In this document: piece after piece, positions 1-3,000 of the stretch
Position numbering within the stretch: position 1 is the first letter of the stretch
Layout: the number at the start of each line of letters is the position of its first letter
DNA from: Mycobacterium phage prophiGD04-1
Sequence record: MW584209.1
Length of the DNA stretch: 60,432 nucleotides
Strand: one strand, 5' to 3'
Program-made: the position numbers

Positions 1-3000
1 AGCATCCGACTGTTAATCGGACGGTTATTGGTTCGAGTCCAATCGGGGGAGCAGGTCAGACGGTATTTCCAGTTCAGCGGTGTAGCCAAGGGTGTAGCCA
101 ACACCCTTTCCGCGCATCGCATCTGACACTCCATGCGAGTCCACGCCAGCACAGATTGTGCTGGCGTGTTTCGCATTTCAGGCTGTTTGCCTCGCGCAGG
201 CTCGAGCTATGCCAGGCGTTCGACGAGCCACAAAATTACGTGCTCGATTGTGATCTCATGCTTGACCAAGCTCTCGACCATTCGGCCGGCCTCGATCGGG
301 TCTGCCCGCGGAGATTCCAGGGGAGACCCGTTCAGGCTTAAAAACGTGGTGCACGCGATCCATGCGGTGCGCTTATTCCCCTCATGGAAGGGGTGGTTGG
401 CTGCGATCCCGCGCAGTAGGACCGCAGCCTTCTCCACCAGAGTCTGGTGGAGGTCTTCGCCGTCCCAGGTGACAAATGGTTGGTTGGCGGCCGATTCAAG
501 GCCTGCCAGGTCCGTCACAGCGTGGTTCCAACCCATCAGACTTTCGTTGATCCCGATGATGGACGCCACGCTGAGCCGTTTGATCATCTAGTGGCCAGCC
601 ACTCCAGTGTCTCGCTCCACTCCTTGGCTTGGGCTTGGGCTTCAACAGTGACATCGTCGTCATGGGCTTCGACGGCCTGTGTGCGCGGCCGTCGAGGCAC
701 CGGGTCTCCAAGCACGCTGCGGCGCGTGTAGAACGCACGCATTGTCGCGGTGTCGATTTCAGCAGAGCTATGTGCGCCGTAAGGGAGGTCTCCCCGGGCT
801 TGCTGCCACGGCATCTCCCGATGTGTGCGATCGACAAGCTCTTCGCAGCTCAGACGCCCATAAAAGTCCAAGACACTGTCGAGAACGGCCTTTTCTTCGC
901 CAGTCAAAGCGTTGGCATTCCCGCCAGGAATAGCGGACACGGAGTACTGGCGATAGTGCGCCGAGTACAGCCGACGTACTACCGGTCCGTCCCGCCAAGC
1001 CTCGATTGGTTCGAGGAAGAGCGGCTTCCCGTCCCACACCATGCTCCACGCCTGGCCGTAATACACAAGCTTCTGCAGCGACTTAGCCCTGAAGGCTGAC
1101 TGCTCGGCGCCACCTGTGGCGTGCAGGATGTACGCGGCAGCATCTAGAGAAGTGGCCATTTGTTTCCATCCTTTCCACTAATGGTGCCTTTGATATACCG
1201 AGTATGACTCCTGTCGACCCGCAACGTTGTACCAATACAGACCGACACGGACGTATTCAGACGTCTGAGGGCCGGTTTCTCCTGAAAATTGATGGAACCG
1301 GATTCGTCCGTCAAGAGGCTAGCGAGGCGTCCTGCATGCGCAGAGGAATCAGCCCTCGCAGGCGACCCCGTCGTTGTCCCGGTCCAGCTTTGGCCGGTAG
1401 CCGGGATCGCCTTTTTTGATGTTGTAGGCGCCGTCGGCATGGGCTTCCTTACAGCTGCCATACGGCGGATCGGCGTGAGTTGGTGCCGTTGCGCCGGCCG
1501 GCCAAGCCGCTGCCGCGGCGACCACCATTCCTCCGATGAACGTGCTGACAACTGCACCGACCGTGAGCTTCATTGCCCCCAACCTCCCCGTGATCTTGCT
1601 TGTGGTGAGAGGAATCTACTCGCGATCGAACCTGTCCACAGTCGTTTCACCGGCGCATTCTGTGGCGATCATCGCGTCCGAGTATTTGTTGAAATTTGAT
1701 GGAACCAGATTGGCCCTAGTGTCGTCGTATCTAGATGAATGCCGGTTGTGATGACGAGAGGCGAGGTGGGCCGTGGGTGAGTACAAGTTCGACATCAATG
1801 GGATGTCCCAGGATGCCCGACAGGAAGCCGCTGAGGCTGCTCGCACCACACTGAAGTTCAAGGACGGCTACGGCATGGAGCTCGCCGCGGACATGCTGCG
1901 AGCCCGCGACATCATCGATAAGCAGCTCAAATTGGTAACTAACAGCCAGGACTTATCTCTAGGCGATCTGCCATCGGGCCGCGAGGCTGCGGAGCACTAT
2001 AAGGAGCAACGGCAGCAGGCTTATGCGGCTTTGGTCAAGATCAGGGACCATTACCAGGGGCACGCCGATCACTTCATTGCCACGGAGATGTTGTTCCGCA
2101 ACACCGAGGAACGCAACGCCGGCCGGATAAACCCGTACAAGGACGGAACGGCGACGGTGAGCTACTGATGATGCGGATCGGCTTGGCGTGCGCGGCGATG
2201 CTCCTGGCAGCTGGTTGCTCGACCTCGACGGGCATTACAAAGCCGGCCGGCGTCACCAGTTCGGCGTCGCCGTCGGCGTCCGCCACAGCGACGGCGCAGC
2301 CTCAGGTGCCAAGCACCCTGACCGCGCCGCATCCGCCGCCGAACCACTGGAATGACGGGACGAGCTACGACCCGTGCCTGACGTATACGGCTGAGCAGAT
2401 TCGTGCGTGGGGTGTGGATCCGGCACAGGTCGACGATCGGGGCGTAGAAGACAGACAGCTTCGTGGATGCCGTTGGTCCTCTGACGGTTGGTCGGTTGAG
2501 CTGTCTGTCGCCAACACGAAGGTGTCGTCGTACCTGGACGCCAAGCTGTTCGATAACCCGCGGTCTGTAACTGTCGCCGGCTTGCAAGCCGTGCAATACG
2601 ACGGCGGTATCCCTCAGGCTCCCGCGTGCACGGTGATCCTGCCAGTCCAGAACGCGACGGTAGCCGTCGTAGTCGCGATTGTTGACCCGAAGCGGGCTAA
2701 GGGCGTGTCCGATGCGTGTGCGAAATCGATCGAGGTGGCTACTGCGGTGGCGCCGACTCTTCCGAAGTGAATTGGGGTGTGAGTGATGGCTGATGATGGC
2801 TGGCAGGGGATGTCGCATCAGGAGATCGTCTCCAAGCTGAGCGGGTTGGGCGTGGAGTCCGCTCGTGCGGAAGCGGACCGCTGGAGCAGCGTCTATGGAG
2901 CTGTGTCTGAGTCGGTGGATACGGCGATGAAGGTGCGCAGCAAGCTGCTTGACTCCGAGTCGTGGTCGGGTGAGGCTGCCAATGCGGCGTATGACGCTGT

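Follow-up and report, generated by a model that had tools for sequence, protein, structure and literature searches.

A putative PanA–Doc toxin–antitoxin operon at the tRNA-Asn end of the Mycobacterium abscessus prophage prophiGD04-1

The closest described relatives of the locus analysed here, a pair of overlapping genes at the left end of Mycobacterium phage prophiGD04-1 (sequence record MW584209.1; its 60,432 nucleotides are hereafter referred to as the window), are toxin–antitoxin (TA) systems whose antitoxins carry a DUF4065 domain. This domain was named "Panacea" by Kurata et al. 2022 (PMC8832971), who found Fic/Doc-like proteins to be the second commonest annotated class of PanT toxins partnered with PanA antitoxins (n = 32). 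In the same work, the Doc:PanA pair of Corynebacterium doosanense was validated through toxicity-neutralisation assays, pull-down experiments and metabolic labelling, the latter indicating specific inhibition of translation, and neutralisation was independent of ClpXP and Lon. The accompanying Dataset S1 assigns the pairs of Mycolicibacter minnesotensis and Corynebacterium lowii to Fic cluster T7, together with that of C. doosanense. Subsequently, Ernits et al. 2023 (PMC10440598) divided the C. doosanense PanA, which spans 188 amino acids (aa), into Panacea (residues 1–154) and Phd (residues 155–188) constructs. The C-terminal helices, termed "Phd-C", touch the Doc active site in their AlphaFold model; removal of Phd-C abolished neutralisation, and SUMO-Phd-C alone neutralised Doc. 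The Panacea globule was proposed to operate as a sensor. The pairing of a Panacea protein with Doc is therefore not new, and the pair reported here is of a published and experimentally dissected kind.

The locus comprises two open reading frames (ORFs) on the minus strand of the window, an upstream one of 191 aa (panA; 584–1159, with ATG at 1159 and TGA at 584–586) and a downstream one of 126 aa (doc; 207–587). With a probability of roughly 0.85, we consider them to be a type II TA operon of the PanA–Doc kind (cluster T7; Doc-D6:PanA in NetFlax), which a prophage of cluster MabE1 carries at its tRNA-Asn end as an accessory cassette. This assignment draws on the domain identities, the gene order, the conservation of the pair, the joint occurrence of Doc and a C-terminal antitoxin tail, the fold predictions and the location at the prophage end. 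The pair possesses the sequence and fold features of a Doc toxin, together with the Panacea domain and the conserved bicistronic arrangement of PanA–PanT systems. As in C. doosanense, a Panacea protein devoid of an extra N-terminal domain is encoded upstream of a Doc of ~126 aa, and the two genes overlap. The antitoxins are likewise similar in length (188 versus 191 aa), in the end of the core near residues 150–155 and in a C-terminal helical element of ~35 aa, and both hosts belong to the order Mycobacteriales. In contrast, the C. doosanense pair comes from another host and is listed as "NotPhage" in Dataset S1, whereas the pair studied here is prophage-borne and adjoins an attachment (att) site. 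The PanA of C. lowii is 40% identical to ours; C. doosanense was compared by its published layout. The T7-listed species M. minnesotensis and C. lowii are those of loci L004 and L027 of the present analysis.

The 126-aa protein was assigned by profile searches and structure prediction. It matched Pfam Fic (PF02661) with an E-value of 1.3e-13 and 52 bits (cut-off 24), NCBIfam TIGR01550 (DOC_P1) with 42.6 bits (cut-off 38.65) and PHROG 577, "Doc-like toxin", with 3.8e-22. Its catalytic motif, HPFHEGNKR (residues H65–R73; 369–395, minus strand), aligns with HIFNDANKR of P1 Doc and is of Doc type, with NKR replacing the GNGR of AMPylating Fic proteins. The lysine of NKR, which stands at the place of the second glycine of GNGR, separates Doc kinases from GNGR AMPylases (Castro-Roa et al. 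2013, as cited by Kurata et al. 2022), and P1 Doc, toxic unless neutralised, phosphorylates EF-Tu and arrests translation. Residues H65, G70, N71, K72 and R73 are invariant in 34 Doc homologues. The AlphaFold2 (AF2) model, with a predicted local distance difference test (pLDDT) value of 94.0, consists of six helices. A Foldseek search with this model returned P1 Doc from Phd–Doc complexes (3dd7_A, 3k33_A, 3kh2) as all of the top five Protein Data Bank (PDB) matches, with a template-modelling (TM) score of 0.80–0.83 and a root-mean-square deviation of 2.5 Å for 3dd7_A and 3k33_A; classical AMPylating Fic proteins ranked beneath P1 Doc.

The upstream protein matched Pfam SocA_Panacea (PF13274) over residues 28–119, with an E-value of 1.3e-16 and 62 bits against a gathering cut-off of 25.7, and PHROG 1281 with 7.6e-31. 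The initial annotation had read HPFHEGNKR as the mark of a Doc/Fic toxin and the 191-aa upstream product as DUF4065/Panacea-like. Both identifications were borne out, the former by the PF02661 and TIGR01550 hidden Markov model (HMM) searches and by the likeness of the model to P1 Doc, and the latter by the PF13274 search. In the AF2 model of PanA (pLDDT 93.3), a linker joins a compact core to one long helix at the C-terminus. The globular Panacea core (residues 1–149; 713–1159, minus strand) contains the PF13274 match and comprises helices and strands through helix 137–149. In an alignment of sixteen Doc-partnered PanAs, its invariant columns include W38, W55, G58, H113 and W118. The ensuing linker (residues 150–166; 662–712, minus strand), delineated from the alignment, is without regular secondary structure according to DSSP, and the pLDDT drops to ~76. 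Its sequence varies except for the conserved G151, P155 and P158, and a variable stretch follows the core at about residues 159–178.

The C-terminal segment (residues 167–191; 587–661, minus strand) is a putative Doc-neutralising, Phd-C-like element, as suggested by the helix modelled at 167–190, a conserved motif and its co-occurrence with Doc. The motif reads W181-x-x-T184-L185-x-x-L188-A189-x-R191 (W181..TL.WL..R191; window 587–619), and among the sixteen aligned proteins W181, L185, L188, A189 and R191 are invariant and T184 is nearly so. With a spacing of i, i+4 and i+7/8, these residues would fall on one face of the modelled helix. Fold comparison of the whole PanA model added no relative: Foldseek retrieved no PDB entry at E ≤ 0.001 and no match to Phd chains, and a phmmer search of PDB sequences was likewise empty at E ≤ 1. 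To our knowledge, no Panacea structure has been solved, so this comparison is uninformative on mechanism. In position, the C-terminal helix corresponds to the Phd part of C. doosanense PanA, which is divided into Panacea 1–154 and Phd 155–188. As Phd-C is the neutralising part of that protein (Ernits et al. 2023), neutralisation of Doc probably does not reside in the Panacea domain itself.

P1 Phd–Doc, the archetype of the toxin, resembles the present pair in toxin fold and size, in the kinase-type motif HxFx[DNE][AG]NKR, in the position of the antitoxin gene upstream of the toxin gene on a temperate phage and, probably, in neutralisation by a C-terminal helix. The body of the antitoxin differs, being a Panacea domain here and a Phd/YefM DNA-binding dimer in P1; moreover, P1 is a plasmid prophage, whereas prophiGD04-1 is integrated. 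The PanA tail resembles the C-terminus of P1 Phd (WxETLDWL versus LFDTLDST, with the profile placing ETLD on DTLD), and its similarity to Phd residues 45–73 is marginal. The initial annotation had held that the upstream protein stands in place of the canonical Phd antitoxin. This is correct for the N-terminal part, as a Pfam scan at E ≤ 1 found no match to Phd/YefM (PF02604) and gave SocA_Panacea alone, and it needs amendment for the C-terminal part, where the conserved helix 167–190 sits at the "Phd-C" position.

The pair is conserved well beyond prophiGD04-1. At least 152 contigs of M. abscessus encode the identical PanA, with the same context wherever it was read. Homologues with 52–75% identity are encoded in Mycolicibacterium mageritense, Mycolicibacter minnesotensis and Mycobacterium sp. 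852002, and in each case the next gene, with an identical 4-nt overlap, specifies a Fic protein of 126 aa. Altogether, the overlapping PanA–Doc pair was present in at least four mycobacterial species, as well as in Blastococcus, Corynebacterium, Klugiella, Propionibacterium, Pauljensenia and an acidobacterial metagenome-assembled genome (MAG). Such conservation of pair and overlap is far beyond chance.

A genomic scan with one genome per species yielded 80 PanA loci, whose ORFs were called and searched with a Doc HMM derived from the toxin's own family. Doc was encoded directly downstream of PanA in L009 and L010 (Blastococcus), L011 (the acidobacterial MAG), L027 (Corynebacterium lowii), L048 (Klugiella), L050 (Propionibacterium acidifaciens) and L059 (Pauljensenia). 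The Doc-partnered loci are exactly those whose PanA measures ~180–192 aa and ends in W-x-x-(T/S/A)-L-x-x-L, with L051 as the sole Doc-less exception. A downstream Doc thus accompanied 7 of the 8 tailed PanAs versus none of the 72 tail-less ones (hypergeometric p ~2.5e-9, computed by hand and ignoring the phylogenetic non-independence of the loci). A divergent Doc was also sought at the 72 tail-less loci with a relaxed HMM search (E ≤ 10, filters off) and a motif regular expression, and none was found adjacent on the same strand.

The exceptional locus, L051 from Corynebacterium sp. AOP40-9SA-29, encodes a full-length PanA (4001–4579) with a Doc-type tail (RWSETLELLADR), followed by only a short remnant frame; this PanA is an orphan antitoxin that has lost its Doc. 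Most tail-less PanAs are ~142–150 aa long and end in ...AEYYSSL, and the next ORF, often with a 4-nt overlap, encodes ~147–160 aa (examples from among L012–L088 are L018 1572–2015, L023 4456–4899 and L088 2927–3379). This second ORF matched no Pfam family and is presumably another PanT toxin family. In L017, from a Candidatus Aquilonibacter MAG, a canonical Fic protein of 401 aa with the motif HPFGDGNGR (2620–3825, minus strand) is divergent from a tail-less PanA (3824–4438, plus strand).

Two further PanA relatives, P0022 and P0027 (42–46% identical in the core), carry a C-terminal VbhA domain (PF18495) with the sequence SARLEG, which replaces the Phd-C-like tail. Among such relatives, the downstream ORF of L089 (939–1274), which overlaps panA (355–942), has a weak, sub-threshold Fic match of 17 bits. 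Judged from sequence, this suggests a Panacea–VbhA fusion directed at classical Fic toxins, which does not feature in the main text of Ernits 2023 (PMC10440598). VbhA–VbhT and other class I FicTA systems are akin to the prophiGD04-1 pair in that the toxin has a Fic fold and a short helical stretch of the antitoxin inhibits it, as is probable here, and the VbhA domain of the two relatives occupies the identical C-terminal position; the toxin motif here is nonetheless of the Doc type, NKR, and not GNGR. Inhibition of the VbhA type was rejected for our PanA, which has no PF18495 match and in which the (S/T)xxxE(G/N) signature is unconserved, the tail reading SETLEW with a variable S182.

SocAB, a type VI TA system of Caulobacter, shares the Pfam SocA_Panacea assignment of the antitoxin. 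It differs in the toxin partner, which is Doc here and not SocB, and in its mode of action, as the published PanA pairs, that with C. doosanense Doc included, bind directly without needing ClpXP. A proteolytic-adaptor antitoxin of the SocA type was rejected, the SocA equivalog model NF047745 scoring 38.8 bits against a cut-off of 190.

A second pair from an M. abscessus prophage bears on which of the two proteins is the toxin. Genes 2 and 3 of prophiGD12-2 (MW584207, cluster MabD; L002 1736–2652), to which no other mycobacterial pair in the phage collection is closer, repeat the PanA-then-Doc order, the 4-nt overlap and the tail motif (RWRGVLDLLAER), and also lie beside an att site and an integrase. 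They differ in sequence (31% identity for PanA and 40% for Doc), and they belong to another prophage cluster with another attB site. GenBank labels gene 2 a "GepA-like toxin" and gene 3 an "antitoxin", which would speak for reversed roles, namely a toxic DUF4065/GepA-like protein held in check by a small Fic protein. Gene 3 and the 126-aa protein are both Doc by HMM, motif and fold, however, and Panacea proteins have been established experimentally as antitoxins, including towards a Doc partner (PMC8832971, PMC10440598); the antitoxin-first gene order is, in addition, the common one. A reversal of roles is thus extremely improbable, and the MW584207 labels themselves appear reversed because gene 3 is the Doc homologue.

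The organisation of the prophiGD04-1 genes is that of a compact operon. The tetranucleotide ATGA (584–587, minus strand) is common to the stop codon of panA, TGA, and the start codon of doc, ATG, which indicates translational coupling, and the same 4-nt overlap recurs in loci L003–L011, L027, L048, L050 and L059. The coupling claimed at the outset is accordingly retained across genera. A Shine–Dalgarno-like GGAAAGGA at 1169–1176 precedes the ATG of panA by 9 nt. The intergenic region upstream of panA (1160–1348, minus strand) presumably houses the promoter; it contains a short GTCATACTC element in common with the M. mageritense locus, and the upstream regions of the panA loci are otherwise poorly conserved when aligned.

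Toxicity, translation inhibition, complex formation and tail-mediated neutralisation are taken over from the homologous C. doosanense pair (PMC8832971, PMC10440598). By extension, panA and doc would be transcribed leftwards from 1160–1348 in the lysogen and translated in a coupled manner through the ATGA overlap. By homology, free Doc would phosphorylate EF-Tu and stop translation, and PanA would bind Doc directly and keep it inactive. The neutralising element would most likely be the conserved, amphipathic C-terminal helix 167–190, which may occupy the active-site groove of Doc as the C-terminus of P1 Phd does. The N-terminal Panacea globule would then be a scaffold or a sensor rather than the inhibitor.

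Several observations weigh against this interpretation. Consensus scans of window positions 1–2000 for sigma-70 promoters and terminators found none, and an inverted-repeat search upstream of panA gave no convincing operator. PanA lacks a recognisable DNA-binding domain, which leaves autoregulation of panA–doc unexplained, and the published RNA-sequencing data concern other TA pairs (MabA1). The likeness of the tail to Phd is marginal: the profile scores 14.4 where shuffles average 9.7 ± 2.1, and 3.6% of composition-preserving shuffles reach that score. The contact of the tail with the toxin groove is putative in this pair. Finally, motif position 5 is Glu, at variance with the canonical Asp/Asn of Doc and with the Asp of most aligned homologues. 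Although this residue is a conservative variant, it is the feature that would fit an inactive remnant, or a Fic protein that is a non-toxic modifier of another target. We deem such an outcome highly improbable: neither ORF is disrupted, none of the catalytic residues varies among the 34 homologues, and pair and overlap have been kept across families; L051, with its Doc lost, illustrates what decay looks like.

The whole window (1–60,432) is one complete prophage of M. abscessus cluster MabE1. It is bounded by an exact 52-bp direct repeat (1–52 and 60381–60432), the left copy of which (plus strand) is the att common core and is identical to the 3'-terminal 52 nt of the tRNA-Asn(GTT) gene of the host. 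A genome contig of M. abscessus (L003) is 100% identical to window 1–7000, and its tRNA-Asn(GTT), which ends in the 52-nt repeat, adjoins dnaG and dgt. Bases 18–52 are identical to the start of prophiGD79-1, a user of attB-4. A tyrosine integrase is encoded at the opposite end (59022–60251). The repeat and the distal integrase substantiate the placement of the pair at a prophage end beside att, as put forward in the initial annotation. The nearest records of the phage collection are the MabE1 prophages prophiGD54-1 and prophi102-2. In Table 1 of Dedrick et al. 2021 (PMC8092301), a length of exactly 60,432 bp is given for four MabE1/attB-4 prophages, prophiGD04-1, GD53-1, GD111-1 and GD68-1, and the att-proximal TA of prophiGD04-1 had already been remarked upon in that study.

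Comparison with prophiGD54-1 (L001) revealed what occupies this position in a sister prophage. The flanks match at 1–151 (85%), 1351–1650 (78%) and 1685–6807 (95.6%), whereas window 152–1350 is replaced in prophiGD54-1 (152–2158), and likewise in prophi102-2, by two genes annotated as hypothetical. The prophiGD54-1 genes match the PADLOC candidate components PDC-M02A (DUF4365; 2.4e-63) and PDC-M02B (2.9e-133). As the flanks are homologous, panA–doc and PDC-M02 represent a cassette swap beside att, and because the sister prophages hold PDC-M02 in the panA–doc slot, a role in defence or exclusion is favoured by association. Defence or exclusion against other phages is accordingly the most likely role of the pair; prophage stabilisation is a reasonable second candidate, either in its stead or alongside it.

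In its specific form, this proposal makes abortive infection or exclusion the main role: the Panacea domain would sense a cue from an infecting phage and free or activate Doc, and the ensuing stop in translation would protect the lysogens. We give this a little less than an even chance. The variable att-proximal slot with PDC-M02A/B in sister MabE1 prophages argues for it, as do the view of Ernits 2023 that sensing falls to Panacea where a separate element neutralises, the opinion of Dedrick 2021 that M. abscessus prophage TA modules are lysogenically expressed and likely defensive, and the presence of Fic domains in the PADLOC candidates PDC-S23, S04 and S05. Conversely, PanA has no PADLOC model, the Doc matches extend no further than the Fic domain in larger proteins, PanA proteins are not known to have a trigger, and sharing a defence slot is an association only. 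Membership of a PADLOC system as such was rejected for the pair, PanA having no match and Doc covering only the Fic part of the larger PDC-S23, S04 and S05.

The other role to be weighed is addiction, in which loss of the prophage would be followed by decay of the antitoxin and Doc-mediated arrest of the cured cells, as with P1 phd–doc. Among toxins, Doc is the archetype of "death on curing", and its fold and motif are kept here; the cassette lies at the extreme edge of an excisable element, and the identical pair is intact on more than 150 M. abscessus contigs. Nevertheless, close MabE1 prophages persist without the cassette, neutralisation in the assays of Kurata 2022 had no need for ClpXP or Lon, and the orphan PanA of L051 exists without Doc, from which it follows that the pair is dispensable. 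Addiction as the main role is therefore possible, if rather unlikely. Returning to defence, a more far-reaching version holds that the MabE1 att-proximal slot is a swap-in defence locus, filled by PanA–Doc in some prophages and by PDC-M02 in others, in which Panacea senses a mycobacteriophage product and, upon infection, withdraws the helix from Doc to shut off translation; we advance it tentatively and regard it as rather unlikely.

The remaining features of the region adjoin the operon or lie farther inside the prophage. Between the doc stop and tRNA-Asn, a hairpin (133–177), which the consensus terminator scan overlooked, lies 30 nt beyond the doc stop and consists of a perfect 12-bp stem (142–153/157–168), a 3-nt loop and 6 outer pairs. 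Its RNA fold has an energy of -39.1 kcal/mol, with z-scores of -4.5 on the minus (doc) strand and -6.9 on the plus (tRNA) strand. It is a candidate bidirectional terminator, proposed from sequence, that may end the doc transcript; the doc strand has no U-tract at this hairpin, so the assignment as terminator is by inference only.

On the other side of the TA module, a small, secreted-looking protein with an Excalibur domain is encoded at 1349–1582 (minus strand), and the neighbouring region (1349–6658) also contains an ESX/WXG-type polymorphic toxin cassette. The members of the latter are a DUF3558 lipoprotein-like protein (2168–2770), a Gly-rich protein of 408 aa (2783–4009) and a protein of 553 aa (4362–6023) with an Abhydrolase_8 domain at its C-terminus, in agreement with what is annotated in prophiGD54-1 as WXG/polymorphic-toxin genes. 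At the integrase end, immediately to its inner side, the prophage encodes a radical SAM/SPASM protein (57571–58407, minus strand). This protein gave partial matches to the PADLOC prokaryotic viperin models (3.8e-14) over only the first half of the profile, which may just reflect the common radical SAM core. A 27-nt sequence, GA(A/G)ATTTTGGGGTGTGAGGGGGGTGCA, occurs twice, 12 kb apart (7929–7955 and 19970–19996; 96% identical), and direct repeats of 28–33 nt cluster at 20486–20592, where the sequence matches genes for RepA-like replication initiators in related prophages. Both the 27-nt pair and the clustered repeats are possible regulatory sites or iterons.

Taken at face value, the analysis places a cassette that is widespread among clinical M. 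abscessus prophages in an experimentally characterised TA family. It also corrects how DUF4065/"GepA-like" plus Fic pairs are read functionally in the records of M. abscessus prophages, where the labels of toxin and antitoxin are swapped for at least one homologue of the pair, and it singles out the att-proximal slot as a locus of exchangeable accessory or defence genes. In practical terms its value is modest, and phage-infection sensing by the Panacea domain in M. abscessus is a potentially interesting question. If the cassette excludes phages, it bears on the choice of phages for M. abscessus therapy and lends itself to asking which signals Panacea domains respond to. If the slot is indeed a swap-in defence locus with Panacea as the sensor, a common clinical M. 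abscessus prophage would shape susceptibility to therapeutic phages, and the large mycobacteriophage collection would make this pair a tractable system in which to find the long-sought Panacea trigger.

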